Assembly (NCBI GenBank): GCA_965217115.1
Contig: OZ244239.1
Location: forward strand, 512,001 to 576,000
Direction of reading: 5' to 3'
From: Bdellovibrionales bacterium
GTDB taxonomy: Bacteria > Bdellovibrionota > Bdellovibrionia > Bdellovibrionales > CAYMLA01
Length of the DNA stretch: 64,000 nucleotides
The notes beneath the pieces are model-generated. The model did not search any database. It saw nothing but the letters and a program-made list of their open reading frames with translations, and was not told the origin of the DNA. The position numbers and the translations under genes were made by a program. Positions within the stretch are counted from its first letter, which is position 1. Each line of letters starts with the position of its first letter. Shown one piece after another: positions 741 to 32,887 of the stretch.

Positions 741-1977
741 ATCGTAATCCTTCCACTGGTTTTAATCGCGAACCACGATAGGCAGGGGCCAAAGTCGCTA
801 TGAAACAAACAAGCGTGGTTGCACTAAAAATTAATACTAAGTCTAGAGTTTTCATTATCGGAGAAAACTCACTTAAACGATACACATCCTGAGGTAAAAA
901 GCCCGTGCGACTAACAAATACTTCAAAAATAAAACAAAACAGCACACCCAAGACAATTCCACACAGCGAACCAAAAACTCCAATAATAATTCCTTGCCAA
1001 CGAAATACGCTTAACACACGGTCTGCACTTAAGCCCATTGATTTCATAATCGCAACTTCTGAGTATTTTTTTATAACACGAATATACAAGCTACTGGCCA
1101 TGTTCAAAGCTGCCGCCAAGATCATAATAAATACCACTATGAATATAACTGCTTTCTCCAAAACGATCGCTTCAAACAAATTATGTTCCACCGCCTGCCA
1201 ACGCCTTGTCCAATAAGGATGATCTAATTTTTTATTCAAATTCTTCGATACTCTCTCGGCCATGCTCGAAGAAGTCAGCTTTGTGTACAACCCCGTATAA
1301 TCACGTCCCACTTTCACGCGCACTAATTTTTGCACAGACTTTAGAGGAGCCATTATATAACGACTATCATAGTCGTATTTACCTAAACTTAAAACACCCA
1401 CCAAACGAAACCTACCGAGTCTTCTTTTTAATTCGCCCGAACCTAATTGACTTGCAATGGGGAAGACTACGCGAAACGACTCGCCCACTTTGAGTCCCAT
1501 ACTCTTTACTAATTGCTTTCCCAAAAGTGCTGGAATTAAATCACCGCCTGAGTGATCTTGAGATAAATCAAACTCCCCCTCAACTAAACGATTCTCCAAA
1601 TTCAACACACGTCCAACTGAGTTTTCCTCAATCCCTTGAACGGCAACACCCGATATCTTTCCCTTATGGGCTAATAATCCTTCTACAAATAAAAAAGGAC
1701 TGCCCTCTAACACATCAGAGTCTGCCTTTTTTACTTTTTGCAATAATTCAGGCCATGGTAACATCTGACGGGAGCGGGAGAGAACCAAGACATCCCCTGT
1801 CACATCCACAATAGATTTCTGCAAAGCCACCGAAAACCCCGAAACAACAGCCATGGCAATCACCAAGCATGCAACTCCCAAAATCAAACCAATCAAAGAT
1901 ATCCCATTGGATAAATCAAAACTGTTCCTATCACGATAAAGCGACTTCCAAGCCAACCACAGGGGCAATCGATCCAC
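733..1977 (-). CDS. Lipoprotein-releasing ABC transporter permease (LolC/LolE family)
   Basis: N-terminal TM helix, large periplasmic domain, FtsX-like C-terminal TMs ending ATLAPAYRGSRLKPVEGLRYE; overlaps lolD. Confidence 0.85.
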   Translation of the reverse strand: MDRLPLWLAWKSLYRDRNSFDLSNGISLIGLILGVACLVIAMAVVSGFSVALQKSIVDVTGDVLVLSRSRQMLPWPELLQKVKKADSDVLEGSPFLFVEGLLAHKGKISGVAVQGIEENSVGRVLNLENRLVEGEFDLSQDHSGGDLIPALLGKQLVKSMGLKVGESFRVVFPIASQLGSGELKRRLGRFRLVGVLSLGKYDYDSRYIMAPLKSVQKLVRVKVGRDYTGLYTKLTSSSMAERVSKNLNKKLDHPYWTRRWQAVEHNLFEAIVLEKAVIFIVVFIMILAAALNMASSLYIRVIKKYSEVAIMKSMGLSADRVLSVFRWQGIIIGVFGSLCGIVLGVLFCFIFEVFVSRTGFLPQDVYRLSEFSPIMKTLDLVLIFSATTLVCFIATLAPAYRGSRLKPVEGLRYE

Positions 1978-3123
1978 TACTCCCCCCCCCCTTTTTCTCC
2001 CTGCTCACTCAGAGCTGTCATCTTTAAAAACTCTGTCATAAACTCCTGTAGCTCTCCGTCCAAAACTCCATCGACTCCCGATGTTTCATAACTCGTTCTA
2101 TGGTCCTTCACCATCTTATAGGGGTGCATCACATAGGACCGTATCTGACTCCCCCACTCATTGGCCTTTTTCTGGGAGTTTGCCTCGTCTTTTTCCTTAT
2201 TTCTTCTCTCTATCTCTTTTTCATAAAGGGCTGCTTTCAACATTTTCATCGTGCGCTCACGGTTCTGTATCTGGCTTCTTTCACTCTGACATTGAACCAC
2301 AATTCCTGTTGGAAGATGGGTCATCCTCACCGCTGAATCCGTTCGATTCACATGCTGCCCACCAGCTCCACTCGCCCTATAAGTGTCTACACGCAAATCT
2401 TCTGCTTTAATCTCCTCCACCTCGACAGAATCATCCACCTCTGCCCAAGCAAACACCGAAGCAAAGCTCGTGTGTCTACGAGCGTTGGAATCAAACGGAC
2501 TAATACGCACCAAGCGATGAACGCCTATCTCTGCCTTTAAATATCCATAGGCGTAAGCCCCTTGAATCCTCAAGGTCACAGATTTAATACCCGCTTCATC
2601 TCCATCTGTTCTCTCTAAAACTTCCACCCCAAATCCCTGGCCTTCGGCGTAACGCACATACATACGCATAAGCATGGATGCCCAGTCACAGGATTCTGTC
2701 CCACCAGCCCCTGAGTTGATCGACAAATAAGTGCTCTGACTGTCTAATTCACCATTTAAAATTCTTTTTAACTCTAAAGATTCATAGAGACTTTCTAAAA
2801 CTTTGACTTCAGATTTTAATTCTAAAAAACTACTCTCGTCTTTTTCTTCAACGCTCATTCCTAAGAGAACCTGTCCGTCTTCAATACGTGAGTGAAACCT
2901 CTCCCATTCTTGAATAGATTTCTCTAAAAAACTTCGCTCCTGATTGAGCTGCTGCATTTTGTCTGAGTCATTCCACACGGCTGGATTCTCCGCAGCCATG
3001 TTCACTTCCTGTAAACGCTTAATCTTTGTCTCTAGGTCAAAGATACCCCCGTAAAGCCTCGCAACTCTGACGCAATTGCGATAACTTCGATTTTACCTCT
3101 GCCGTTTCTGTATCAATCGACAA
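1977..3123 (-). CDS. prfB: Peptide chain release factor 2, with programmed +1 frameshift after codon 28
   Basis: SPF and GGQ motifs. Upstream TTG start at 3123 reads MSIDTETAEVKSKLSQLRQSCEALRGYL to CTT TGA C (3042-3036), then continues +1 into the annotated ORF (DLETKIKRLQEVNM...). Confidence 0.93.
3036..3051 (-). promoter_or_regulatory. RF2 autoregulatory +1 frameshift site
   Basis: Minus strand reads CGGGGG-TAT-CTT-TGA-C: internal SD-like sequence, 3-nt spacer, CTT slippery codon, UGA-C stop. Confidence 0.92.
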
Positions 3124-3204
3124 TGCCTTACCCTCTGTCTCTTTTGAAAATTTAACTGCTTTTAGTCTATACGGATTGTTGCCCACGCTCAAGGCTAAAC
3201 CTTT

Positions 3205-4866
3205 TCAGGTTATCTCTTCTCTTGTCCAAACAGTATTAACTCCCCGCTCTTTAGCAATATCCATGGCATCTTCATACCCTGCATCCACATGGCGAAAAAT
3301 TCCCATAGCAGGATCAGCCGTTAAGACTCGCTGTAAACGTTCACTCGCCTTCTGCGTACCATCCGCCAGCGTCACCTGCCCAGAATGTAAACTATAACCC
3401 ATTCCCACTCCACCACCATGATGAAAACTCACCCAAGTCGCGCCGCAAGCCGTGTTCGCCATCAAATTCAACAGAGGCCAATCGGCCACCGCATCAGAAC
3501 CATCCTTCATCCCTTCCGTTTCACGGTTAGGAGAAGCCACGCTGCCACAATCCAAATGATCACGACCAATCACAATCGGGGCCTTCAGCTTTCCCTCTGC
3601 CACCAACTCATTAAAACGCAAACCTGCCTTCGCCCGCTCGCCATACTCCAACCAACAGATACGCGCTGGCAACCCCTGAAAAGATATTCTCTCCTGAGCC
3701 ATGTCCAACCAACTCAAAAGATTTTTCTTATGGGGGAAAAGTTCCCTCAACGCCTCATCAGTCACCCTAATATCCTCGGCATCCCCCGAGAGAGCCACCC
3801 AACGAAACGGACCACTGCCTCGACAAAAGAGAGGGCGAATGTACTCAGGAACAAAACCCTTAATATCAAAAGCATTCTTCAGACCCGCTTCTACAGCACG
3901 GGCGCGAATGTTATTACCATAATCAAAAGTCACCGCGCCTTTTTTCTGCAACGCTAACATTCCCTCCACATGACGACCCATGCTGGCTATAGATTTTTTT
4001 AAATACTCCTCAGAGTTATTCTCTCGCAATCGATCTGCTTCCTCTAAACTCAGACCCTCAGGAATATAACCCACCAAAGGATCGTGGGCCGAAGTTTGAT
4101 CGGTTAAAATATCCGGAACAAAACCCTTGGCAATCAACTGATGAATCACCTCCGCCATGTTTCCCTGCAAAGCGATGGATTTAGCTAGTTTCCGTTCTTT
4201 GTATTTTTCCACTCTGGCTAAAGCATCATCTAAATGATCAGCCACCTCATCAACATAAGAAGTTTCTAAGCGTTTCTTGATTCTTTCAGGGTCCACTTCA
4301 ACCGCCAAAACAACAGCTCCTGTAAAGACTCCCGCCAAGGGCTGCGCCCCTCCCATACCACCAAGCCCAGCCGTTAAAATCACTCGGCCACGCAAGTCAT
4401 CATTAAAATAACGACGTCCCACTTCAACAAATGTTTCATAGGTTCCCTGAATAATTCCCTGACTACCAATGTAAATCCAGGACCCTGCCGTCATTTGCCC
4501 ATACATCATCAGACCCTTTTTATCCAACTCATCAAATTGCTGCCAGGTCGCCCAATTAGGAACCAAGTTAGAATTGGCAATCATCACCCGTGGCGTGTCC
4601 TCTGTCGTCTTAATTACACCCACCGGTTTTCCCGACTGCACCAATAAAGTTTCGTCATTTTCAAGAGTCTTTAATGTTTCAAGAATTTTATCAAAGCAAG
4701 GCCAATTACGGGCCGCCTTACCCTTGCCGCCATACACAATCAAATCCTCTGGCACTTCCGCCACTTCAGGATCTAAATTATTCTGAATCATACGATAAGC
4801 AGCTTCTTGCTGCCAGCCTTTACAGTTTAATTTATCACCCCTAGGGGCTTTTACCACTCTCACCAT
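3205..4866 (-). CDS. hutU: Urocanate hydratase
   Basis: [55 protein letters not shown] motifs. Confidence 0.97.
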
Positions 4867-4868
4867 AT

Positions 4869-6407
4869 CTATAATTCCAATTTTCCAATTGATTTCTGTA
4901 ACGCCTCTAATAAACTATCGGAACGAATTAATTTTTTTATTTTCTCGATGTCATTAGAAAAAACACGATCCTCCTCTGCAAAAGAAACTTCAGAACGAAT
5001 AACATTATAACACGCCTTAACACCCGCTGAAGGTTCTAACGGTTTCAGAAAGTCCAATGCCTGTGCAGCACAAAGTAATTCCATGGCCACAATATTCTCT
5101 GCATTTTTTACTATCTGCCCTAACTTTCTGGCAGCAATCGTCCCCATACTCACATGATCCTCTTTATCTGCCGAAGTCGGGATGCTATCCACCGAAGCTG
5201 GGTGGGATAAAATTTTATTCTCACTCACCAGAGAAGCTGCAGCCACTTGCACAATCATCATACCGCTATTAATACCACCCTTGGGTGTCAAAAATGCTGG
5301 TAATTCACTCATATGGGTATTAACAAGTTTCTCTATCCGACACTCAGAAATACTCGACATCGCACTCATCGACACTCCCAAGAAATCCAAAGCAAAGGCC
5401 ACAGGTTCCCCATGGAAATTACCACAGGACAACACCTTATCCTGATCTGCAAAGACCAAGGGGTTATCCGTACTCGATGCCCCTTCAATTTCCAATGTCT
5501 CAATCCCACTGCGGATGACATCCTTACACGCCCCATGAACAGCCGGCATGCAACGCAAAGAATAAGCATCTTGCACCCTGCCACAATTATCATGACTCTT
5601 AGAAATATCAGAAGATATTCCCAAAATTTTAAGCAAGTTTCTCGCGGTCTTTGCCTCCCCTGGATGGGGACGTGTCGATGCTATCAAGGGATCAAAGGCC
5701 GTCCTCGACCCTCGTAAAGCTTCCAAAGTCATCGCTCCTGACAAGTCAACCATCCACGCAAGCCTTCGAGCTTCATAGACACTCAACATTCCAATGGCCG
5801 TCATCACCTGACAGCCATTAATAAGCGATAGTCCCTCTTTAAGTTGAAGCTCCAATGGCTCCACCCCCGCTTCTTCTAAAATTTTCTGTGTTTCTGTGGG
5901 TCGATTATTATTTTCTCCCCAAACCTCTCCCTCTCCCATCAAACTCAACGCCAAGTGAGCCAAAGGAGCCAAATCACCACTGGCCCCAACACTCCCCTGC
6001 TGGGGAATCACTGGAATAATATCCTTATCTAAAAACTCTAAAATTTTATCCACCACTTCAGGACGAATGCCACTATGCCCTGTCGCCAAAGCATTGGCTC
6101 TTAAAATCATAATTGCCCTTGAAGCACTTTTAGAAAATTTAGGCCCGACACCACAACAATGGGAACGGATTAGGTTTTTTTGTAACTGAATCGTCTCTTC
6201 AGAGGAGATACTCACACTGCTAAAGGCACCAAACCCTGTATTAACACCATAAATAATATCGCCCCTACTCACTCGGCCCATGATATAATCACGGGACTCC
6301 TGCATTTTCTCGCGCGCTTCTTCAGATAAACTTAACTCAAGGTTATTACTATAAGCCCATTTCCATAGCTCATCAACACTGATCCTTTCACCCGATATCA
6401 TTGTCAT
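4869..6407 (-). CDS. hutH: Histidine ammonia-lyase
   Basis: [11 protein letters not shown]-forming [29 protein letters not shown]; adjacent to hutU. Confidence 0.96.
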
Positions 6408-6413
6408 ATTTAA

Positions 6414-7067
6414 TCATCTCCTCTTCAATGCCCCTATACGTTCTTTATAATCTCCCTTAAAAACAAAACTTCCCGCAACAAGGACATCCGCCGAACCACA
6501 CTTGCTCTTGGTCTCAGCAGTGACCCCACCATCAACTTCAATCAAATAATCAGCACTATTATCTTCACGCCATTGGTGTAAAAAATCTATCTTGCTCACT
6601 TGATCCTCCATAAAAAACTGCCCACCAAAACCCGGCTCCACCGTCATTACTAAAGCTAAATCCACCATAGATAAATAAGGAATAACCTCATTCACATCTG
6701 TCCCTGGACGTAAAGTGATTCCAGGCTTAACCCCCTGGCGACGAATCTCTTCAAGCACATTTTTAGGTTCTTTTGTCGACTCCACGTGAATCGTTAAATA
6801 ATCTGCACCTGCTTTAACGAAATCTTCGATATAACGCTCAGGCTCTTCAATCATTAGGTGAACATCCAACACCATAGATGTCATCGGTCTCAGAGACTTC
6901 ACCACAGGCGCTCCAATAGTTAAATTAGGAACAAAGTGCCCATCCATCACATCCACATGGACCCAATCCGCCCCCGCCTCTTCAATACTCAAAATCTCTT
7001 TACCCAAACAGGAAAAATCAGCTGATAAGATACTCGGTGCTACTAAAAATGAATTTTTAACCACCAA
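6414..7067 (-). CDS. rpe: Ribulose-phosphate 3-epimerase
   Basis: APSILSADF, HVDVMDGHFVPNLT, DVHLM, MTVEPGFGGQ, EVDGG. Confidence 0.96.
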   Translation of the reverse strand: MVVKNSFLVAPSILSADFSCLGKEILSIEEAGADWVHVDVMDGHFVPNLTIGAPVVKSLRPMTSMVLDVHLMIEEPERYIEDFVKAGADYLTIHVESTKEPKNVLEEIRRQGVKPGITLRPGTDVNEVIPYLSMVDLALVMTVEPGFGGQFFMEDQVSKIDFLHQWREDNSADYLIEVDGGVTAETKSKCGSADVLVAGSFVFKGDYKERIGALKRR

Positions 7068-15161: not shown

Positions 15162-15253
15162 CTAAAATTCTCCTTGTGTCACACTCTGAATACTTTCCAG
15201 ACTATGCTCTGCTTCTTGGTGTTTGCAGTCAAGAACTGTTTGTTTGATTTGGG

Positions 15254-15384
15254 CAAAGAGGTGTTTTTTAAATGACATATATTCTTTAGCTCAGACATTC
15301 GTTTGGCTGCGGCGCTCGCTTTGCGAGCATCGCACCAATCCGAACTCGCTAAAGAATATATGTCATTTAAAAAACACATCTTTG
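15254..15384. repeat. Palindromic element copy 1
   Basis: 37-bp arms 15254-15290 and 15348-15384 (1 mismatch) enclose a nested hairpin core TCAGACATTCG...GCTCGC-TTT-GCGAGC...CGAACTC. Confidence 0.95.
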
Positions 15385-15401
15385 AAATCTGCGGCTGGGC
15401 T

Positions 15402-15540
15402 GGGAACAACGGAGAGAGAGAGAGAGAGGGAACAACGGAGAAGGACGGGAATAATGGAGAAAGAGACAGAGGGGGGACAACGGAGAAAGAGAAAGAGGGG
15501 GGGAACAACGGAGAGAGAGAAGGAAGGGGGGGGGGGGGGG
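15402..15540 (+). repeat. Purine-rich GGGAACAACGGAGA-type repeats and G15 tract
   Basis: About four GG(G/A)ACAACGGAGA units with (GA)n spacers; G run at 15526-15540. Confidence 0.85.
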
Positions 15541-15550
15541 AGCGATTTGT

Positions 15551-15587
15551 AAAAAAAAGCTACAATTTTATGATTGTAGCTTTTTTT
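15551..15587. terminator. Intrinsic (bidirectional-type) terminator downstream of lipoprotein 1
   Basis: A8-GCTACAA-loop-TTGTAGC-T7. Confidence 0.8.
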
Positions 15588-15609
15588 AACTATTATTTAA
15601 GAGCTAATT

Positions 15610-16701
15610 TTAGATACAATAAATCTTATCCAAAAATACACTTGGTAATTCTATAACATTCGGAGGTTGATCACCGCGCAGTCTTAACAATGTTCGCTTG
15701 GTAGGTTTCGTCTTCAATTCCCACACATCTGTCGTCTCATTAAACTCATAAACATCACTTGAAACATCATCAAAGGGTTCATACCTAATGGAGTAGGAAA
15801 GTAGGTTATCATAACCTGACTCTTTACAAATATTAGCGGCACCCTTTTTGGCCATAGGTAGAAAGCTGTCATCAACAAGATCGTTCATATGTATAATGGT
15901 CCTAAAAGCTCTCCGAATAGTCCAAGCTTCATCGGCGTTTTTTATTAGGAAAAAACTAGATTCTGTATAAAAATTGCTAGCAGGCTTCATAACAGTTGCT
16001 AGTTTTGCCGCAAGAATACTCTTTATCATCTCTGGATAATCGTCATTAATAGCAGAATTATCCTTAAAATGAGAAAGTGTTGTGCCGAAGCAAGTTATAG
16101 ACGCCATATAATTTTTTTTCTCGCCTATTTCTTCATTATAATTATTATAATACATGGAATACTTTTTATCATCACTCTCAAATTTAAAGTAATGGCTCTT
16201 AATATCTAGAGTGTCTGGAAACATACTGCCAGAAACTGGGTTTGATACCAGTGTGGCATGAAGAACAGGATAAGTTACTTTAAAATCATAGTAGTTGGCA
16301 GGCATAGATTCAAAAACCTCAGTTCGACTAGTATAATCATTTATTGTTGTATACCTTCCAAGTTCAGGGCTAGTAAAACCAAGGAAAGAGCAAATCTTTT
16401 GCACTTGCTCGTCTCCATCTTCTCCAGATATCCTTATGCCATTACCAATAGTAATTGGTTTCACGGCATCATCTCCTATCTCATTGATTGCTGATAATCT
16501 CACACTGTCATCTGCGGAAAAATATTCAACCTTAACATTCGTATCTTCTTTGCTTCCGTCTCCCACGACTGCTCCACGGTAACTCGTATCAATAATCACA
16601 ACATCACTGCCTTGATAAATATCATCATCATCACACCCAGAGATACTTAAACCAAGTAGCAAAGATAAGAGAGAATTCCTCATTATTAGTGTCTTTTTCA
16701 T
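15610..16701 (-). CDS. Predicted lipoprotein, paralog 1 (unknown function)
   Basis: Signal peptide with lipobox LSISG-C23; 363 aa; closely paralogous to 17867..18955. Confidence 0.85.
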   Translation of the reverse strand: MKKTLIMRNSLLSLLLGLSISGCDDDDIYQGSDVVIIDTSYRGAVVGDGSKEDTNVKVEYFSADDSVRLSAINEIGDDAVKPITIGNGIRISGEDGDEQVQKICSFLGFTSPELGRYTTINDYTSRTEVFESMPANYYDFKVTYPVLHATLVSNPVSGSMFPDTLDIKSHYFKFESDDKKYSMYYNNYNEEIGEKKNYMASITCFGTTLSHFKDNSAINDDYPEMIKSILAAKLATVMKPASNFYTESSFFLIKNADEAWTIRRAFRTIIHMNDLVDDSFLPMAKKGAANICKESGYDNLLSYSIRYEPFDDVSSDVYEFNETTDVWELKTKPTKRTLLRLRGDQPPNVIELPSVFLDKIYCI

Positions 16702-17057
16702 TTTTAGATCCTTTTAGATAAAGATTAGAGAATAGAGAAAACAATATTCCCATGTAGGTTGATTATTTCTTTGTTTATTAAATTATTAGACCCTGATTAT
16801 AACCGAAGAGAGAGAGTTTTTCTTAAGAAACTTACAAAGTTGAATATTTTACAAATGCCCATCAAGAGAACTTATCTTTTCCAAAATATTTTAAGCGTGT
16901 GACGAGAGAAGCTGTTGTAACTTACCGTAAATACTATGACCTAATCTGTATTTATTTTATTTCTATTTATTTGGTAGATTGTAATCTATTTTCCAAAAAA
17001 GCACTAAAATCAAACAATAGACGCCTATTCCTCTCCCCTTCGCTGTTCCTTACCCTC

Positions 17058-17760
17058 TCTCCGTTGTTTCCAGCCCAGCCCAGCTGCAGATTTTAAAAAT
17101 ATGTTTTTTTAAATGAATGTTTATTCTTTAGCTCAGACATTCGTTTGGCTGCGGCGCTCGCTTTGCGAGCATCGCACCAATCCGAACTCGCTAAAGAATA
17201 AATATTCATTTAAAAAACCACCCTTTACCAAATAATAGGTTTTAGCCAAGTCGAAAAATGCCACAATAATTCAACCTCCCCAGTTAGTTGTCCCCGTCCC
17301 CCTCTCCGTTGTTCCCAGCCCAGATGCAGATTTCAAAAATATGTCTTTTTAAATGAATGTTTATTTTTTAGCTCAGACATTCGTTTGGCTGCGGCGCTCG
17401 CTTCGCGAGCATCGCACCAATCCGAACTCGCTAAAGAATAAACATTCATTTAAAAAATCACCCTTTACCAAATAATAGGTTTTAGCCGAGCCGGAAAATG
17501 CCACAATATTCAACCTCCCCAGTTAGTTGTCCCCGTCCCCGTCTCCATCTCCATTACTCCCGTCCCCTTTTCCTGTTGTTCCTAGCCCAGATGCAGATTT
17601 CAAAAATATGTCTTTTTAAATGAATGTTTATTTTTTAGCTCAGACATTCATTTGGCTGCGGCGCTCGCTTCGCGAGCATCGCACCAATTCGAACTCGCTA
17701 AAGAATATATGTCATTTAAAAAACACATCTTTGAAATCTGCATCTGGGCTGGGAACAACG
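17058..17760. repeat. Tandem array of three palindromic element copies (2, 3, 4) with shared linker
   Basis: GCTCAGACAT starts at 17131, 17371 and 17638 (periods 240 and 267 bp); linker CACCCTTTACCAAATAATAGGTTTTAGCC...GCCACAAT recurs. Confidence 0.95.
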
Positions 17761-17806
17761 GAGAAGGACGGGAATAATGGAGAAAGAGGGGGGGGGAGCG
17801 ATTTGT

Positions 17807-17844
17807 AAAAAAAAAGCTACAACTTTATGATTGTAGCTTTTTTT
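17807..17844. terminator. Intrinsic terminator downstream of lipoprotein 2 (duplicate of 15551-15587)
   Basis: A9-GCTACAA-loop-TTGTAGC-T7. Confidence 0.8.
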
Positions 17845-17866
17845 AACTATTATTTAAGAGCTAATT

Positions 17867-18955
17867 TTAGATACAATAAATCTTATCCAAAAATGCACTT
17901 GGTGCTTCCATTTCATCCGGCGGTGTATTAGGACCTCGCTTCCTTATTATTGTTCGCTTGGTAGGTTTCGTCTTCAATTCCCACACATCTGACGTCTCAT
18001 TAAACTCATAAACATGACTTGAAACATCATCAACGAATTCATATCTAAGGGTGTAGGAAAGCAGATTATTATAACCTGACTCTTTACAAATATTAGCGGC
18101 ACCCTTTTTGGCCATGTCTAGAAAATTGTCCTCATCGTCGTAATCGCGCACACGTATAAAGTTCTCAAATCTAAGATGCCAAAAGTCATGGGCATTTTTT
18201 ATCAGGAAAAAACTAGATCCTGTATAGAAATTGCTAGCAGGCTTTATAATAGTTGCTAGTTTTGCCGCAAGAATACTCTTTATCATCTCTGGATAATCGT
18301 CATTAATAGCAGAATTATCCTTAAAATGAGAAAGTGTTGTGCCGAAGCAAGTTATCGATGCCATATAACTCTTTTTCTCGCCTATTTCGTTTTCTATATA
18401 GCTTTCATAATATTTGGGCCGCTCTTTCTCGCTATCAAAATAATGACTCTGAATATCTAGAGTGTCTGGAAACATACTGCCAGAAACTGAATTTGGTACC
18501 AATGTGGCATGAAGAACGGGATAAGTTGCGCTGAAGTCTCTGTAATTTCTGTGGGTATATTCAGGCTTCTCTCTATAAACCTCAGTTCGACTAGTATAAT
18601 CATTTATTATTGTATACCGTCCAAGTTCAGGGCTAGTAAAACCAAGGAAAGAACAAATTTTTTGCACTTGCTCGCCTCCATTTTCTCCAGAAATTCTTAT
18701 ACCACCACCAATAGTAATTGGTACTGTGGCATCTCCTGCCTCATTGATTGCTGATAATTTCACACTGTCATCTGTGGAAAAATATTCAACCTTAACATTC
18801 GTATCTTCATTGCTTCCGTTTCCCTCAACTATTCCACGGTGACTCGTATCAATAACGACATTAGGAGAACTACCTGTATAGTCATTACACCCAGAGATAC
18901 TTAAACCAAGTAGCAAAGATAAGAGAGAATTCCTCATTATTAGTGTCTTTTTCAT
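17867..18955 (-). CDS. Predicted lipoprotein, paralog 2 (unknown function)
   Basis: Signal peptide and lipobox identical to paralog 1; 362 aa. Confidence 0.85.
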   Translation of the reverse strand: MKKTLIMRNSLLSLLLGLSISGCNDYTGSSPNVVIDTSHRGIVEGNGSNEDTNVKVEYFSTDDSVKLSAINEAGDATVPITIGGGIRISGENGGEQVQKICSFLGFTSPELGRYTIINDYTSRTEVYREKPEYTHRNYRDFSATYPVLHATLVPNSVSGSMFPDTLDIQSHYFDSEKERPKYYESYIENEIGEKKSYMASITCFGTTLSHFKDNSAINDDYPEMIKSILAAKLATIIKPASNFYTGSSFFLIKNAHDFWHLRFENFIRVRDYDDEDNFLDMAKKGAANICKESGYNNLLSYTLRYEFVDDVSSHVYEFNETSDVWELKTKPTKRTIIRKRGPNTPPDEMEAPSAFLDKIYCI

Positions 18956-19246
18956 TTTAGATCCTTTTAGCTAAAGATTAGAGAATAGATAAAACAATAT
19001 TCCCATGTAGGTTGATTATTTCTTTTTTATTAAATTATTAGATCCTGATTATAACCGAAGAGAGAAAATTTTTCTTAAGAAACTTACAAAGTTGAATATT
19101 TTACAAATGCCCATCAAGAGAACTTATCTTCTCCAAAATATTTTAAGCGTGTGACGAGAGAAGCTATTCTAACTTACCGTAAATACTATGATCTAATCTG
19201 TATTTATTTTATTTCTATTTATTTGGTAGATTGTAATTATTTCCCA

Positions 19247-19301
19247 AAAAAACACCCTTTGCCAAATAATAGGTTTTAGCCGAGTCGGAAAATGCCACAA
19301 T
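19247..19301 (+). repeat. Isolated fragment of the repeat-array linker
   Basis: AAAAAACACCCTTTGCCAAATAATAGGTTTTAGCCGAGTCGGAAAATGCCACAAT matches the linkers near 17215, 17455 and 21935. Confidence 0.85.
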
Positions 19302-19618
19302 TAATTACTTTTGATAATGTCTCATCTTATTACTGGATTCACGATATAGAGTCTTACATCGACGAGAGCCTAGAAAGCGAAAAGAAGGCTTATTAGCCCC
19401 TTCTCTGCTTCGTTTTCTACTCACTAAAAGCACCCTAAACTTAGAGATATCTTTGCCTGAAAAACTAATTTACTCTCTATGATATCAAGTGTTTACAAAA
19501 ATATAAGATTACGTAAACTCTTCCTAACTTGCTAAAAAGACGGTATTTGAACGTTTTTTGCACAGATTTTGGTCGATTTATGTTATTATAGACGTAGAAA
19601 GTACCGATAAAAGAAGGT

Positions 19619-20050
19619 ATGGAGGCAAATATGTCAGATTCAGCACAGACAATAAATAATGATGTTAATGGTGGAATACTAAATTCACTAGGCATCTTAA
19701 CTGAGGATGGCATGGGTTTTCATCCTGATGCATTTTTTAAATATAGTCCCTACAGCAGAACAGTCCTTGCAAAAGAAGCAAAAGTTTCCAGAACTAATTT
19801 ATACAAAGATACTGTTAAATTAAGCACTATTAAGCAATTAAGAAAAGGTATCCTTCAAGTTGTAATGGGAACAGATTTAACTATCGAGCTTTTTAAAGAC
19901 AATACAGAAGAAGCAATCAAATGGTTTAATGCTCCAAATACAATGCTATCTGGTGAATCTCCTTTTGAAGTCTGTATTAGAAGTGATGGACATGGACTTT
20001 TAAACTGGTTAAGAGGGAGACTTGGTTACAGCGATGCTGTCCCTTTTTAA
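19619..20050 (+). CDS. Antitoxin, Xre/MbcA/ParS family
   Basis: HTH-like LAKEAKVSRTNLY; C-terminal ELFKDNTEEAIKWFNAPNTMLSGESPFEV typical of the toxin-binding domain; precedes a RES gene. Confidence 0.8.
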   Translation: MEANMSDSAQTINNDVNGGILNSLGILTEDGMGFHPDAFFKYSPYSRTVLAKEAKVSRTNLYKDTVKLSTIKQLRKGILQVVMGTDLTIELFKDNTEEAIKWFNAPNTMLSGESPFEVCIRSDGHGLLNWLRGRLGYSDAVPF

Positions 20051-20150
20051 TTGATAGTGGCCAAAACAAAAAAGAAAACCACTAAAAAAAAACACAGCAA
20101 AGAAAAAGGTTCCAAAAAAATATATTATACGCTTTAGTAAAGAAGTTCTT

Positions 20151-20795
20151 TTGAAGTATGTCCAAGATGATATTCAAAAAAATCAACAAATAGAAAAAAA
20201 TCAAATAATTGAATCAATGAGGTTTGAGCATTCGTTAAATACTCAAGGGAAATTAAACTTTCAAACATTTAAAGTTTCTTTTAATGATCCTGTTTATAGA
20301 GTTTATCCAAAACAGTTTAGTGTAACTAGCATCCTTGGGAGCATCTCTGACGGTGCGAGATTAAATATTGGAGGGCCACAAATTCTAAAATCAAATTTTC
20401 CTTTTAATAAATTTGGAGCATTATATATTTCAAATACAATGGCTGGGGCAATTGCAGAATATTGTCAGGGAACGCCTTTAGATAAAAATGACTACAAGTA
20501 CACACTGCAACCTCAAAAAACTTTTGAGTTGTGGGATTTAGATAAAGTTGTTAGCAACTTGCAAATTTCATCTCTGAAATTTCTAATTGATAAATTACCA
20601 ATTGGAGGTGGCTGGGGAAATTGCAAAGTCCCAATGCCTTCTCAGATATTAGCAACTTGGTTAAAAAGCATAGATGGTGATGGGATAATGTATACTTCGA
20701 CTAAAGACCTAAACTCTAAGATTATTGCGATCTTCACACAAAATGATAGAGAATCTGAAAATAATTTTTCAATAATTAGCAGAACAAATATATAA
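20151..20795 (+). CDS. RES-domain toxin (start uncertain; may begin at GTG 20057 through a frameshift)
   Basis: VYR, GARLN, ALYIS, AIAE, SQILATWL, DGIMYTS motifs of RES NAD+-degrading toxins. Confidence 0.8.
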   Translation: MKYVQDDIQKNQQIEKNQIIESMRFEHSLNTQGKLNFQTFKVSFNDPVYRVYPKQFSVTSILGSISDGARLNIGGPQILKSNFPFNKFGALYISNTMAGAIAEYCQGTPLDKNDYKYTLQPQKTFELWDLDKVVSNLQISSLKFLIDKLPIGGGWGNCKVPMPSQILATWLKSIDGDGIMYTSTKDLNSKIIAIFTQNDRESENNFSIISRTNI

Positions 20796-21132
20796 TTAAA
20801 ATAACTGCTAGAAGAAAAGAAAGCTCTTATGATTATTCCTACGTTATTCCGTAGTGACAATTTACCAGAAACTGTTTTTTCAGAAAATGATTTTTAGCAT
20901 AGAAGAAGGACTTGGGGTAAATATTATAAGACAGAAGGATTGATGGCAAAATTTAGTGATGCCGGCAAAGCTGGATGGAGTTAAAAAGCCTAGCATGGCT
21001 TGTTTCTGCCCACGTTAGCTATGTTAATGCTCCGACAGGTAAAACCCCAACAACAAGAACAGTTTTTCTCTGACTCCTCAAGTAGCTTAAATGCTAGAAC
21101 TGCTGCCATCGATTAACTCTCAGAACCCTTGG

Positions 21133-21582
21133 TCAAACGTGTCCGATGCTTCGTTGAATAATTTGATCAAGTTTTCCTAAAAATTTAGATCGATCGGTCT
21201 TAGTCATGGAACTGGGGCCAGTGTTGGTATGTCCTAGAGTTCTAAGATGGGCATTTATTTTTCTTGCAGCTAGTGCGCTACCGATATTTTCCTCATCAAA
21301 TTCATAACCTTTTGCTCCGAGTACTTTGGCTTCTTTTTGAATTCCACGTTCAGCTAAAAGCAAATCTGCTGTAATGAGAATGTCACCAGCTTTGATATTC
21401 TCAGCTATCCAGTCATCGGCAGCATCAAAGTCATTGGAGACCACTTGCATTTCAATGTTTTTATCCAGGGGAGTATTTAAGTATTGATTGGCGACAACAA
21501 TCACTTTTAACTGGTAACGAGCAGCTACTTTATAAGTTTCTTCTTTAACTGTGCAGCCATCAGCGTCGATATAAATTGTCAT
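21133..21582 (-). CDS. yaiI: YaiI/YqxD (DUF188) family protein
   Basis: IYIDADGC.VK, FDAADDWI, DILITADLLLA motifs. Confidence 0.9.
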   Translation of the reverse strand: MTIYIDADGCTVKEETYKVAARYQLKVIVVANQYLNTPLDKNIEMQVVSNDFDAADDWIAENIKAGDILITADLLLAERGIQKEAKVLGAKGYEFDEENIGSALAARKINAHLRTLGHTNTGPSSMTKTDRSKFLGKLDQIIQRSIGHV

Positions 21583-21672
21583 TTAAGTCCCTTTCAATTT
21601 GTCATCTTTAGTCTATATAAAACAGCATCAGAGAGAATAACTATCAAGCAACATCTATTTCATAACCCCTTT

Positions 21673-21757
21673 CCCCCGTTGTTCCCGTCCTTCCCAACTA
21701 TTCCTGTCCCCCGTTGTTCCCGTCCTTCCCAACTATTCCTGTCCCCCGTTATTCCCA
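21673..21757 (+). repeat. 35-bp pyrimidine-rich tandem repeat
   Basis: CCCCCGTTGTTCCCGTCCTTCCCAACTATTCCTGT twice plus a partial third copy; contains the reverse complement of the GGGAACAACGG motif. Confidence 0.9.
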
Positions 21758-22186
21758 GTCCAGCTGCAGGTTTCAAAAATATGTTTTTTTAAATGGACAT
21801 CTATTCTTTAGCGAGTTCGGTATGTTTTTTAAATAAATATTTATTCTTTAGCTCAGACATTCGTTTGGCTGCGGCGCTCGCTTTGCGAGCATCGCACCAA
21901 TCCGAACTCGCTAAAGAATAAACATTCATTTAAAAAACCACCCTTTGCCAAACAATAGGCTTTAGCCGAGCCGAAAAATGCCACAATAATTCAATCTCCC
22001 CAGTTAGTTGTTCCCGTTCCTATCTCCGTTGTTCCCAGTCCAGCTGCAGATTTCAAAGATGTGTTTTTTAAATGGACATCTATTCTTTAGCGAGTTCGGA
22101 TTGATGCGATGCTCGCGAAGCGAGCGCCGCAGCCAAACGAATGTCTGAGCTAAAGAATAGATGTCCATTTAAAAAACACCTCTTTG
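21757..22186. repeat. Truncated palindromic element, copy 5 (21825-21937) and inverted-core copy 6 (22054-22186)
   Basis: Arm plus GAGTTCGG stub at ~21785-21820; full + core from 21853; reverse-oriented core at 22092-22148. Confidence 0.93.
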
Positions 22187-22192
22187 CCCAAA

Positions 22193-23359
22193 TCAAACAA
22201 AAGATTGCTTTTTGATTTTTTCTAGAATAATCTTCTCAACCTTAACCGGATCCGTCGGATCAACACTAAAATAAGACTGCTGTTCACAACGTTTTTTCTC
22301 TGTAATCAACCACTTTAAAATATTAGATAACTTTTTATTTTTCTTATCGTGGAAAAAAGGATCATTGTTTAAAGCGTCCTTCGCTTTTTTTAGGGACCTT
22401 AATTCAGAAGGATCTTTTTCTCCTACGCTGTAACAATGAAGATCGTATTTTTTCACGTCCTCAGGCAACACACCTAAGAATCGCACATCAGAAGCCGAAA
22501 AATCAGCATTTCGGATCAAGCTTGCCGCCGACCCCGCCTTCAAGGTCCGATAAATATTCTGAATCGTGTACGCATCCAGATCTCCAAAGAAATACATCGG
22601 TGCCTTCACCTGCTCCTGAATAAGTCGACACCAACCACGCACTCCATTGCTCGGAACACCCTGCGCACCAATCACAATGCATCTATGTCTTTTCGTAAAT
22701 CCATTGGCCACCAGAGTATTCGCCGTACCCTCTGACTCGACAACCAAGGAAAAATCAATCTTGCCCCTCGTTTTTAAGCTCAATGCTTGGGGCTTATTTT
22801 TAGGCTGAAACGGAGTCGTCCCCAACGTAGATAGGTCAACAACCGCCTTCTCTTCATCAGGTAAAGTCTCAGTGACTATCAATTGTTTCGAGTAAGTTTG
22901 ACCACCACGATCATTGGCAAAACAATTAAGCTCCTCACGATACACTTCTAACATATCACAAATAAACTCAATTACAGAATCACTCTCAATCTGATCATTG
23001 AAATCTAAGGGTTTTAACTCTTTATTGCTTTTCACCATACCCTTGGCTAAATAATAAATCTCACGCTTAGTATTCTGAGAGCCTATATCTAGGTTCCGTA
23101 AAAATATCTCTAATAGGAAAACCACCCGTGCCATCTTCTGTACCGACGAGACATTCAACTCTGTCTTCACCTTTTTTTCGCCAGGGGTTAGATACCCTAC
23201 CTTAGAGTCGTAAAAAGAATTATCAAGAGAGCACTTGATCGCTTCCAACATCGGACGGCGACTGTTCTCCAAATCCTTTAACATCTTATCACACAGAATC
23301 ATGGATTCTTTAGGGATGTCTTTTTTCAGCTCTCTTATGCGTGCCCGTGTTTTAGCCAT
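22193..23359 (-). CDS. top6A: DNA topoisomerase VI subunit A (Spo11-like)
   Basis: TKREIYY catalytic Tyr motif, TOPRIM VVESEG, GVP, FGDLDAY (DxD); follows top6B. Confidence 0.9.
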   Translation of the reverse strand: MAKTRARIRELKKDIPKESMILCDKMLKDLENSRRPMLEAIKCSLDNSFYDSKVGYLTPGEKKVKTELNVSSVQKMARVVFLLEIFLRNLDIGSQNTKREIYYLAKGMVKSNKELKPLDFNDQIESDSVIEFICDMLEVYREELNCFANDRGGQTYSKQLIVTETLPDEEKAVVDLSTLGTTPFQPKNKPQALSLKTRGKIDFSLVVESEGTANTLVANGFTKRHRCIVIGAQGVPSNGVRGWCRLIQEQVKAPMYFFGDLDAYTIQNIYRTLKAGSAASLIRNADFSASDVRFLGVLPEDVKKYDLHCYSVGEKDPSELRSLKKAKDALNNDPFFHDKKNKKLSNILKWLITEKKRCEQQSYFSVDPTDPVKVEKIILEKIKKQSFV

Positions 23360-23366
23360 TTCTCCA

Positions 23367-25208
23367 CTACCTTTTCTTAGACTTCTTGGTCTTCTTTTTC
23401 TTCTTAACTGTTTTCTTCTTAGCTGCTTTTTTCTTGGTTACTGATTCCTTTTTTTTCTTTTTGATGGCTCTCTTCTCAATCACCTTTTTTTTCTTCTTAG
23501 CCCCTTTCTTCTTCTGTGTCTTATTCAACAACAAAGGAGATGATTCCTCTTTGCTCTCTCCCTCAACACCCAAAACCTGGTCTTGTTTCACCTTTAGCTG
23601 AGCCAATCTCTCACTCGCCGAAGCCAGTTTTTCTTCAGCCTGATCAGTGTCACGACCCAAAATAGAAGATAAACCATCAATCGCTTTTCTCCTTCTCTTA
23701 TCGCTAGCTCCGGTTAAGCGCACAAGTGTGTTCACCAATATAGGTCCAAATTGCTCTATATGTTGCTTCTTTCTCTCCAAATCAGCTTCACGAAATTCTT
23801 TCTTAATATGACGACTCAACTTCTGTCCCGCCTGAATCAAAGCACGACGAATTTCCTCCACCAGTTCATTACTAGAATCGATTGTCTCTTTAGAGGCATT
23901 CTTAAATTTGATAAACGGTGACACGACACTCACTGCAAAAACATAGGGACCCAGAGGCAAAGAACCCTTCGGTTGACTCAACCCATAGGCTTTCCAATTC
24001 ACTGATTCAATCGCCTGAGTCACTGCACAAGCCGCTTTATCAAACTGCAAAGGCACTCGATTGGCAAAACGTAATAACTGAACAGACCCTTCACTCGTCT
24101 CCGCTTTTCTCTCTTGAAAACGAGCCAAAGCCACCTCAATCACAACAGGCTTAAAATCACAAATCGTCGGACGACGACAAACCACACTGAAAAAATCCAC
24201 TTCTCCCAAACGAAGAATGCTCTTAGACAATGCCTCTTCGCCAACCTTCAACACCGATTTCGTACTCGGAGCTAACAAATCTGTATCCTGTAATACCTGG
24301 AAAACCTTCTTAAACTCAGCATCACCCATAGATGAAATAGATTTATCCAATATTGCTTTTTTTAAACCGTTCTTTTTTAAATCCTTAAAAGTGTTATCAG
24401 ACACTCGGGAAAAGCCTGTTTTTAAAAACTTACCCAGTGGCACTTTGCCAAATAAATGGGCGTGGGTGATAAATTCGCCTAATTTCATCGTGTGTGGATG
24501 GGGAGGTGTTGGTTGGGGAATGGAAGGCGTCTCCTCTGACACTCTCTCAATGTAAATTTCTTCACGATCTAAAAGTTTATATCTAAGTGTTAGGTGAGGA
24601 TTCACCAAAGTTGTTCCATCCAAGTAAGTCAGAATTCCGCCATCGCCATTTAATTGAACACGGCCATCAATTTTAAACTCTACACTCACCCCATGGGAAC
24701 GATTCCAATCAAGGGTTTTCCGATCTTTTAAAACACCCTTATTGCCTTTAATATCCACATCAACAAAACACGACACCGCCTTGCGCATACGCTGAGTTTT
24801 ACTTAAAACCTTCACGCCCTTAGCGTTGGTCAACTGCGCCCAAGTCGTAGCTGCAGATATTCCAATTCCTTGCTGCCCCCTAGAACATTGTCCTTTCCCA
24901 AATTTAGACGATGCCAAGTACTCTCCGTAAACCTTGGCTAAATCATCCTCCTCAATGCCAGGACCGTTATCCTCAATGACTATTTTGATTAAATCCGCAT
25001 TTTTTGCCGATCCTTTACCTACTTTTTCTACTATCACCTTGATTTCAGGAAGCAAACCAGCTTCCTCACAAGCATCTAATGAGTTATCTACCGCCTCTTT
25101 CAAGGTCGTTAACACCGCCTTGATCGGCGACGAAAACCCCACCTGCTGGAGGTTCTTAGCAAAATATTCAGCTGTACTACTCTGTGTGATTTGATTTCTC
25201 TTTGCCAT
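23367..25208 (-). CDS. top6B: DNA topoisomerase VI subunit B with Lys-rich C-terminal tail
   Basis: AEYFAKNLQQVGF, GHKL EAVDNSLDA, DNGPGI, SRGQQGIGIS, RFANRVPL, FKNASKE. Confidence 0.93.
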   Translation of the reverse strand: MAKRNQITQSSTAEYFAKNLQQVGFSSPIKAVLTTLKEAVDNSLDACEEAGLLPEIKVIVEKVGKGSAKNADLIKIVIEDNGPGIEEDDLAKVYGEYLASSKFGKGQCSRGQQGIGISAATTWAQLTNAKGVKVLSKTQRMRKAVSCFVDVDIKGNKGVLKDRKTLDWNRSHGVSVEFKIDGRVQLNGDGGILTYLDGTTLVNPHLTLRYKLLDREEIYIERVSEETPSIPQPTPPHPHTMKLGEFITHAHLFGKVPLGKFLKTGFSRVSDNTFKDLKKNGLKKAILDKSISSMGDAEFKKVFQVLQDTDLLAPSTKSVLKVGEEALSKSILRLGEVDFFSVVCRRPTICDFKPVVIEVALARFQERKAETSEGSVQLLRFANRVPLQFDKAACAVTQAIESVNWKAYGLSQPKGSLPLGPYVFAVSVVSPFIKFKNASKETIDSSNELVEEIRRALIQAGQKLSRHIKKEFREADLERKKQHIEQFGPILVNTLVRLTGASDKRRRKAIDGLSSILGRDTDQAEEKLASASERLAQLKVKQDQVLGVEGESKEESSPLLLNKTQKKKGAKKKKKVIEKRAIKKKKKESVTKKKAAKKKTVKKKKKTKKSKKR

Positions 25209-31990: not shown

Positions 31991-32887
31991 ATGTACCCTA
32001 TCAAAAGGAGCCTCGTCACAATAAGGGGGATTTTTGTGAGAGTTCTATTCCTGATTATAGCTCTCACCCAAATATCATGGGCCTCACCCCATGGTTTTCT
32101 CTACTACGGCGAAAAATTCTACCAAAATATCAAAGATCATCACAAAAATGAAAAATTAAAAAACTCTCTATTCCATATCTTAAATGAAACTCATATTGCG
32201 CAGCTCAATGAAAAGCCCGATCTCATCGTCCCTAATTGCCCTGAAAATGTGAAATGCTACAGACAAAAATCTATTCCATATCGAGCCGCTCGCAAAAAAC
32301 TCTTTGGTTATCTTCATTTAGAACAAAGCGGTGGAGAGTATTACGTTCTCGACGTTTATTGCCAGAAAATCTACGGCCAAACAGAATTTCCAGATGGGGA
32401 ATCTCCTGGGCCTGGTCGTATTCCCTCCCCAAAATTCATAAACACAGAACACACTTGGCCCCAAAGCCGTTTTTCTAAACATTTTCCCAAACATCTGCAA
32501 AAGGGCGATCTCCACGCTCTATTTCCAGTGAGCTCAAAATCTAATAATGTTCGTGGTAACATTCAGATGGGAGAACCTTCTATCATCACCAACCAAATAT
32601 GCGCCAATGCATCTAGAGGACATGATAACAAACTACCTAAAAGAACCCCTTACTTTGACCCCCCAGATTCACACAAAGGCAACGCAGCCCGAGCGCTTTT
32701 TTATTTTTCTGCAAGATACCAAATTCCCATTTCGGCTGAGGAAGAAAAAACCATAAAAAAATGGCACCTTCTAGATCCTGTGGATGAGTTTGAAAAATGG
32801 CGTCATCAGAAAATCTATGAAATACAAAAAAACCGCAACCCTTTCATTGATCACCCAGAACTTGTTCACTCGATAAAAGATTTTTAG
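31991..32887 (+). CDS. Secreted endonuclease I family nuclease (start possibly GTG 32036)
   Basis: NTEHTWPQS, DLHALFP, KGNAARALFYF, DPVD, NRNPFIDHP. Confidence 0.9.
   Translation: MYPIKRSLVTIRGIFVRVLFLIIALTQISWASPHGFLYYGEKFYQNIKDHHKNEKLKNSLFHILNETHIAQLNEKPDLIVPNCPENVKCYRQKSIPYRAARKKLFGYLHLEQSGGEYYVLDVYCQKIYGQTEFPDGESPGPGRIPSPKFINTEHTWPQSRFSKHFPKHLQKGDLHALFPVSSKSNNVRGNIQMGEPSIITNQICANASRGHDNKLPKRTPYFDPPDSHKGNAARALFYFSARYQIPISAEEEKTIKKWHLLDPVDEFEKWRHQKIYEIQKNRNPFIDHPELVHSIKDF

Follow-up and report, generated by a model that had tools for sequence, protein, structure and literature searches.

Mosaic divergence between two tandem lipoprotein paralogs of an unannotated family in a Bdellovibrionales genome

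In this study, a stretch of 64,000 nucleotides from a Bdellovibrionales bacterium (GenBank assembly GCA_965217115.1, contig OZ244239.1, positions 512,001 to 576,000 of the forward strand; hereafter the window, in whose numbering positions are given) was analysed with respect to two tandem lipoprotein genes, paralog A and paralog B, which share a near-identical framework and differ sharply in five short segments. Silent sites, the ratio of transitions to transversions (Ts:Tv) and the share of codons with multiple hits all contrast between the five segments and the framework, and the pair is therefore a DNA-level mosaic rather than a duplicate of uniform age. Such a mosaic of differing apparent ages is what gene conversion, or an exchange of segments, would be expected to leave. 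The account favoured here, with a probability of roughly 0.55, is that the gene was duplicated and that recombination between the copies converted the framework, while the loops escaped conversion or were patched in and drifted almost neutrally.

Results

Paralog A (15610..16701, minus strand) encodes a protein of 363 amino acids and paralog B (17867..18955, minus strand) one of 362 amino acids. The two proteins share 279 identities over 371 BLASTP alignment columns (75%), with 17 gap columns, and the long identical blocks that an earlier note on this DNA had described in two tandem lipoprotein paralogs are present as described. These blocks include the signal peptide with the lipobox LSISGC, the block EQVQKICSFLGFTSPELGRYT and the block YMASITCFGTT...AAKLAT, and the longest run without any difference measures 39 amino acids in the proteins and 105 nucleotides in the DNA. 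Nine indels separate the copies, all of them in frame, and both open reading frames (ORFs) are complete.

The same note had placed five sharply divergent, indel-bearing segments along the proteins, and all five lie where it had put them (alignment columns 24-50, 131-148, 178-196, 263-288 and 345-362). Within them 43 of 108 columns are identical, as against 236 of 263 in the framework, and eight of the nine indels fall inside them. The first segment, V1, is the tether that follows the lipid-modified cysteine (residues 24-49 of A, 16555..16632 on the minus strand; 18815-18886 in B) and has 14 of its 27 columns identical. V2 (residues 130-143 of A, 16273..16314, minus strand; 18524-18577 in B) retains six identical columns of 18 and carries a four-codon indel. 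V3 (residues 173-190, 16132..16185, minus strand; 18389-18436 in B) is identical in 6 of 19 columns, V4 (residues 257-281, 15859..15933, minus strand; 18119-18190 in B) in 9 of 26, and V5 (residues 338-354, 15640..15690, minus strand; 17897-17950 in B) in 8 of 18. Shuffling did not readily reproduce this clustering of differences: the variance per 15-column window was equalled in 0 of 10,000 shuffles, the 39-residue identical run in 7 of 10,000 and, for the DNA sequence, the runs of 105 and 69 nucleotides without a difference in 0 of 2,000. The loops had also been called rich in aromatic and charged residues, and the charged half of that statement holds, with D, E, K and R making up 65 of 200 loop residues against 112 of 479 in the framework (Fisher p=0.016, for two sequences that are not independent). 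The aromatic half does not, since F, W and Y account for 28 of 200 loop residues against 54 of 479 framework residues (p=0.37).

The manner in which the copies diverged was assessed with pairwise Nei-Gojobori estimates of synonymous (dS) and nonsynonymous (dN) divergence and of their ratio, omega. For the whole gene dS was 0.237, dN 0.138 and omega 0.58; for the framework the values were 0.156, 0.050 and 0.32, and for the five loops pooled 0.568, 0.453 and 0.80. Loop by loop from V1 to V5, omega was 0.98, 0.63, saturated, 0.80 and 0.98, thus never above 1, and as a pairwise estimate it is conservative. Because both ORFs are intact despite nine in-frame indels and the framework omega is 0.32, both copies are judged to be maintained by selection.

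Silent differences are themselves concentrated in and around the loops. At codons that specify the same amino acid in both copies, 12 of 42 differ silently in the loops and 21 of 229 outside them (p=0.0013), and such differences were found at 28 of 160 codons lying no more than three codons from an amino acid change compared with 5 of 111 farther off (p=0.0011). Third codon positions differ at a proportion of 0.348 in the loops and 0.092 in the framework, and first and second positions together at 0.353 and 0.057, so that divergence in the loops is equal, at about 35%, across all three codon positions. Moreover, Ts:Tv was 44:53 in the loops and 40:14 in the framework (p=0.0007), and at third positions alone 16:16 and 20:4 (p=0.012). 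Changed codons with two or three hits numbered 30 of 61 in the loops and 6 of 47 in the framework (p=7e-5). The region upstream of the genes has about 3% mismatches, compared with 35% at loop third positions. On these figures the loops are judged to carry DNA that is much older than, or imported relative to, the framework, the signal peptide (0 of 69 nucleotides different) and the upstream region. Segmental exchange, which the earlier note had offered as one possible cause, accords with the contrasts in silent differences, Ts:Tv and multi-hit codons; the silent-site and spectrum contrasts are not predicted by selection on amino acids alone.

The homology of the two copies extends beyond the genes, as an alignment of 1.9 kb around each copy shows. 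The unit of about 2.26 kb occurs twice in tandem, with start-to-start spacings of 2251-2263 bp, and is ordered as an upstream region of approximately 290 bp, the lipoprotein gene, a terminator hairpin, C/CT-rich short repeats and a palindromic repeat element. The upstream region of A (16702..16991, minus strand) has AAGGA shortly 5' of the ATG and is near-identical to that of B (18956..19245, minus strand): aligned over 290 bp, the two agree at 278 positions, mismatch at 9 and require 6 gap columns. Downstream, the interval from stop codon to terminator aligns with 64 matches, 1 mismatch and 6 gap columns, and the near-identity that the earlier note had seen in about 285 bp of upstream DNA and in the terminator is thereby borne out. 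The signal-peptide codons are identical at 69 of 69 nucleotides. A two-way terminator-like hairpin with a 16-pair stem between A and T runs lies directly 3' of the stop codon of A (15552..15587), and a hairpin of the same type lies 3' of that of B (17809..17844). A promoter scan was uninformative, with 14 sites found and 14.2 expected.

Both proteins begin with MKKTLIMRNSLLSLLLGLSISGC, which provides a positively charged n-region, a hydrophobic core and the lipobox I-S-G-C. The N-terminus MKKTLIMRN-SLLSLLLGLS-ISGC is present in both copies and fits the lipobox pattern [LVI][ASTVI][GAS]C as quoted in the abstract of PMC12462473. Owing to this combination of n-region, hydrophobic core and lipobox, A and B are lipoprotein precursors by sequence, with a signal peptide of residues 1-22 and the lipidated residue at Cys23; the sequence that follows the cleavage site reads CDDDD in A and CNDY in B. 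The lipobox and Cys23 are kept in 9 of the 9 aligned family members that have an N-terminus. Directly after the lipidated cysteine, A has Asp and B has Asn, whereas most relatives carry Ser.

The relatives are few. A word-indexed search of 5.8 billion proteins returned only A and B themselves, and its profile version one more. An exhaustive HMMER search of 1.84 billion representative proteins gave 12 matches, nine of them at E<=1e-10, and included eight full-length or near-full-length relatives with 28-35% identity; the family amounts to about 10 clusters among these representatives. The family alignment comprised A, B and the eight relatives (P0003-P0010). It left out P0011 (a 71-residue fragment), P0012 (a 224-residue fragment, used in a second alignment, A4) and P0013 (1024 residues, E 9.8e-4), a repeat protein and probably a spurious match. 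The family-invariant residues, in A numbering, are C104, C204, C292, C362, R90, H148 and H211 together with the lipobox cysteine, and a set of aromatic residues is also present; every invariant residue is retained in both A and B. Across the eight distant relatives the length of V2 ranges from 9 to 18 residues, that of V3 from 3 to 28 and that of V4 from 19 to 34, whereas framework segment lengths are nearly constant (F2, 29 residues in seven of eight relatives; F5, 9 residues in eight of eight). Columns that differ between A and B have a gap fraction of 0.222 in these relatives against 0.089 elsewhere (p=2e-5) and are also less conserved among them (p=7.5e-7). Judged from this alignment, the five segments are length-variable spots of the whole small family and are not peculiar to the A/B pair.

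Annotation searches returned no match above cut-off for A or B in Pfam, NCBIfam, PADLOC or PHROGs; the PADLOC result was a 14-bit, chance-level match in A and none in B. Likewise, none of the 10 aligned members had a Pfam or NCBIfam match above cut-off, and domain-sized pieces had no Pfam match. A sequence-profile search of the PDB gave 0 matches at E<=10. Word searches of the literature, which cannot find proteins by sequence, gave no paper on the family. Structure models were predicted with AlphaFold2 from shallow alignments, with a predicted local distance difference test score (pLDDT) of 73.1 and a predicted template modelling score (pTM) of 0.74 for A, and 76.5 and 0.78 for B. In both models an N-terminal tether of about 25 residues, predicted with low confidence, leads into an alpha/beta body. 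In model A, pLDDT is below 50 at residues 1-46, 132-138, 173-190 and 264-273; in model B it is below 50 at 1-34, 182-190 and 272-275 and dips to 57-62 at V2 and V4. For the V5 block (341-350) the mean is 60 in A and 70 in B. The loops are thus the lowest-confidence stretches of both predicted models. Foldseek found 0 matches at E<=0.001 for A and B against the PDB and for A against BFVD, the top rows having template modelling scores of 0.06-0.16, which is chance level; in the ESM Atlas the best score was 0.79, with no named lead. Taken together, no Pfam, NCBIfam, PDB or Foldseek match was obtained, and by these searches the lipoprotein family is new and unannotated.

A motif of the form helix-Cys-x-x-G-[FY] occurs twice in the protein. 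An internal duplication of a helix and sheet module was considered and rejected, as hhalign of the two halves aligned only 14 columns with E 0.08 and a probability of 0.7%; one further hit in this comparison was an artefact, the slices compared sharing 8 residues. The motif resembles one of SRCR domains, a resemblance that neither profile nor fold search supports, and an SRCR-like domain was likewise set aside: domain-sized pieces of the protein had no Pfam match at E up to 10, and Foldseek gave probabilities of 0.14 and 0.18 for 8hd8_A of a TMPRSS2 entry and of 0.04 for CD163 SRCR2-4, all with E >0.2. The chain 8hd8_A presumably carries an SRCR domain, and its match was at chance level.

One related locus was found when 185,579 species-representative genomes were scanned with a 5-sequence alignment as the query. 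This locus (L001) is an 8.6-kb contig of a Halobacteriovoraceae metagenome-assembled genome, and its homologue, P0004, is the only relative of the family with a taxon label. The genome of the window was absent from the collection scanned; its organism may belong to the same broad group of predatory bacteria. It holds a single family copy, without a second paralog and without the hairpin repeat, and an association of the family with that repeat was rejected because this one related locus has neither the repeat nor a second copy. A HipB/HipA toxin-antitoxin pair adjoins the homologue there (4944-6570). Upstream of the homologue, at 944-3435 of the contig, are a DUF4423/HTH protein and a 549-residue protein without a Pfam match, whose ORF contains a 36-nucleotide tandem repeat (1895-1966).

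In the window, the A/B pair lies within a 7-kb low-GC islet (15162-22192) between the aconitase and topoisomerase VI genes. The GC content of the islet is 0.368 against 0.41 for the window. At third codon positions its five genes have a GC of 0.22-0.31, lower than in any of the 30 core genes compared (minimum 0.312). The islet showed no integrase. In addition to a YaiI-family gene, it holds an Xre/ParS-type antitoxin of the Xre family (19619-20050, plus strand) and a RES-domain toxin (20151-20795, plus strand), both divergent from B. This pair was recognised by PF09722 at 1.1e-5 and PF08808 at 3.9e-8, and by NF049845 at 4.5e-6 with 26.7 bits, which is below the cut-off of 90. The RES toxin near B has its own Xre antitoxin, and no adjacent cognate toxin was found for the lipoproteins. 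A toxin-antitoxin module thus stands beside the family in two of two loci, and since the modules are of different types this may be read as a sign of accessory regions rather than of a functional link.

The palindromic element of about 120 bp just downstream of A (15258..15378) comprises the repeat families D1, D2, D6 and D8. Five further cores lie at 17144-17181, 17384-17421, 17651-17688 (downstream of B), 21864-21901 and 22100-22137. The core gave six matches where none was expected, all at 15.3-22.1 kb: each lipoprotein gene is followed by one, the space between the genes holds another two, and the last two are at the right edge of the islet, so that the element both bounds and interrupts the islet. 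Folding gives a long hairpin (-67.6 kcal/mol, z -14.2) with long A/T-rich arms and a GC-rich asymmetric core, often with an extra common flank, CCGTTGTTCCCAGCCCAG...CAGATTTCAAA. The copies span 15209-15383, 17051-17732 and 21746-22170, and some are truncated or lie one within another. With respect to the flank, both orientations of the core are found (five plus, one minus), and the copy at 17651 is flanked on both sides. The element looks like a miniature inverted-repeat transposable element (MITE) or a repetitive extragenic palindromic (REP) sequence and has no Rfam match; Rfam and tRNA scans of the window gave no matches at all.

Between this element and the terminator of A (15402..15540) lie GGGAACAACGGAGA-type short tandem repeats of family D9 with a run of 15 G, and shorter repeats of the same type with a run of 9 G follow B (17751-17796). 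These repeats and G-runs sit downstream of the terminators, outside promoters and coding sequence, and the tandem repeats give rise to spurious low-complexity ORFs (15179-15656). A separate 35-nucleotide tandem repeat is present in two copies at 21668-21737.

Elsewhere in the window are genes for LptF/G, a Kdo transferase and a MacB/Lol-type ABC transporter, and the organism therefore has an outer membrane and hence two membranes. Directly beside the islet, at 22193-25208, lie genes that together specify a type IIB topoisomerase, its two subunits being Topo VI A/Spo11 and Topo VI B. Such enzymes are typically found in archaea and eukaryotes and are uncommon among bacteria. Further genes encode an Endonuclease I family protein (31991-32887) and a subtilase with a Big_2 domain (39839-41371). 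GC skew on the plus strand is negative in 31 of 32 2-kb bins, reaching -0.36, and most genes are on the minus strand; the window probably lies within one replichore.

Discussion

The pattern described here is an ordinary kind of paralog evolution, and what is new is the protein family. In the favoured account, the gene would have been duplicated by recombination between flanking repeat copies, and the accessory islet is riddled with a repeat at which unequal recombination could readily take place. Thereafter, gene conversion from copy to copy would keep the 5' region, the signal peptide and the framework alike, and five structurally permissive loops would escape or block conversion or be patched in from diverged alleles. 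It is proposed that the loops would escape because their indels and divergence stop conversion tracts or prevent pairing. From then on, the loops would drift at a near-neutral rate.

The products would probably be two similarly regulated isoforms of a lipid-anchored envelope protein, predicted to be disulfide-stabilised, with C104-C204 and C292-C362 as the predicted pairs, and held on a flexible tether. The isoforms would differ in their loops, which are putatively exposed, and in the amino acid that follows the lipidated cysteine (D in A, N in B). In Escherichia coli, that residue sorts lipoproteins by membrane (the +2 rule), which is not known to hold in this organism; by analogy, the D or N could send A and B to different membranes. 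A binding role would be more likely than an enzymatic role.

Several points weigh against duplication followed by conversion. A run test restricted to silent sites was weak, with the longest run equalled in 1,388 of 10,000 shuffles and the summed squared runs in 470 of 10,000. The alignment of the loops is uncertain, which inflates their divergence, and they contain few silent sites (S=54). With only two sequences, conversion tracts and imported patches are inseparable and site-wise testing of selection is impossible. The near-identity of the 290 bp upstream could reflect regulatory constraint instead, and an omega near 1 with saturated dS leaves room for positive selection at some loop sites. 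Furthermore, low pLDDT is expected wherever an alignment varies and is not independent evidence of flexibility.

The earlier note had seen in the pair an antibody-like scaffold under diversifying selection, in which a stable framework presents five loops kept different for recognition of a variable partner, such as a prey or host surface or a phage, or for service as an immunity protein. The strong clustering of the A/B differences would suit this explanation, as would the intact state of both copies, the somewhat higher share of charged residues in the loops (p=0.016) and the origin of the only labelled relative in a family of predatory bacteria. A framework and promoter that are alike while the loops are not would also be expected if conversion of the loops were selected against. 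Against it, omega is 0.80 for the pooled loops and exceeds 1 in none of them, third codon positions are no less diverged than replacement-rich ones, and the segments are generic indel spots of the family with low model confidence. The aromatic enrichment is not significant, and the neighbourhood showed neither a partner gene or toxin nor a phage gene or a match to a defence family. The note had itself named disordered positions with neutral dN/dS as contrary to its idea, and this is largely what was found, with the reservations that dS is saturated and that pLDDT falls where the alignment varies. Recognition under diversifying selection is accordingly considered unlikely.

A plain duplication of a single age, in which no recombination took place, only the framework was under purifying selection and the loops were less constrained, is regarded as distinctly improbable. 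It would account for the coincidence of the loops with unconstrained, length-variable positions of the family, for an omega of about 0.8 in the loops against 0.32 in the framework and for the non-significant longest-run test at silent sites. Yet purifying selection on protein sequence explains neither why silent differences are three times as frequent in the loops and close to them, nor the Ts:Tv contrast at third positions, nor why mismatches amount to only about 3% in non-coding upstream DNA when third positions of the loops differ at 35%. Decay of one copy into a pseudogene is scarcely credible, although parts of the gene evolve in a near-neutral manner, for both frames are complete, nine of nine indels are multiples of three, and each copy retains the family-invariant residues as well as an upstream region and a terminator nearly identical to those of the other. 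Programmed diversification, by a diversity-generating retroelement (DGR) or by a cassette system copying silent donor fragments into an expression site, would fit the sharp borders between identical and divergent blocks and the repeat elements that adjoin both genes. It is nonetheless given very little weight: the silent donor fragments or further copies that the note had suggested looking for were absent from the 64-kb window in tblastn and short-word blastn searches, and Pfam scanning of 63 window ORFs revealed no reverse-transcriptase domain. Moreover, the loop substitutions are not adenine-specific, indels are frequent, and both copies have full promoter regions, signal peptides and terminators.

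A bolder variant, which we hold to be improbable, would make the two genes members of a lineage-restricted family of variable-loop receptors with a new disulfide-locked alpha/beta fold, probably belonging to Halobacteriovoraceae or related predators, in which the promoter, signal peptide and framework are kept identical by conversion and five exposed loops and the sorting residue are kept distinct by selection. If it were true, the bacterium would co-express two proteins of different specificity, whether for the envelope of its prey or for other surface ligands. If instead duplication with framework conversion and near-neutral loop drift is correct, the pair shows cleanly and on a small scale how a tandem duplicate in a bacterium can evolve in concert while its loops escape. 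On that reading, the analysis also flags an unannotated lipoprotein family with four invariant cysteines and no detectable fold relative, which is useful for annotation and not surprising.

Some features of the pair recall known systems of variable proteins. Like the variable proteins of DGRs, A and B show localised hypervariability on a constant scaffold; unlike DGR targets, they have no reverse transcriptase or template repeat in the window and no adenine-specific pattern, and they carry many indels. The Opa proteins of Neisseria are outer-membrane beta-barrels with semivariable and hypervariable loops, whose expression is switched by repeats in the coding region. As in Opa, where recombination among copies maintains the mosaic, a near-identical framework is combined with a few sharply differing, indel-bearing loops. 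In contrast to Opa, A and B are lipoproteins, their repeats and G-run lie downstream of the terminators, and there is no known host-immunity setting.

Among predatory bacteria, the mosaic adhesive trimer (MAT) fibre proteins of Bdellovibrio have diversified binding parts and act in prey recognition; they form fibres of three chains whose tips are chimeric (Caulton et al. 2024, PMC10769870). MAT proteins are a functional precedent for A and B only if the host is a predator, and the architecture is unrelated: A and B have no Pfam, PDB or viral-structure match, and no fibre or adhesin fold was detected in them. If the loops were a selected recognition surface in a predatory bacterium, they would represent a second kind of diversified surface protein in prey recognition beside the MAT fibres.

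A close parallel in evolutionary pattern is offered by the tandem lipoprotein-like (lpl) cluster in the nuSa-alpha island of Staphylococcus aureus (Tsuru & Kobayashi 2008, PMC2568036). In that cluster, conserved sequence within the ORFs serves as the recombination site, variable regions are shuffled, and intergenic DNA evolves along with the adjoining gene parts (PMC2568036). The two systems differ in several respects: the A/B family is unrelated and has no Pfam match, there are two copies and not many, and where lpl genes vary in their 5' and 3' halves, on either side of a single conserved centre, A and B have five short variable loops. The present comparison also covers the pair of one genome. 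Nevertheless, A and B, like the lpl genes as described there, are tandem lipoprotein paralogs that lie in a genomic island or islet and display a mosaic pattern.

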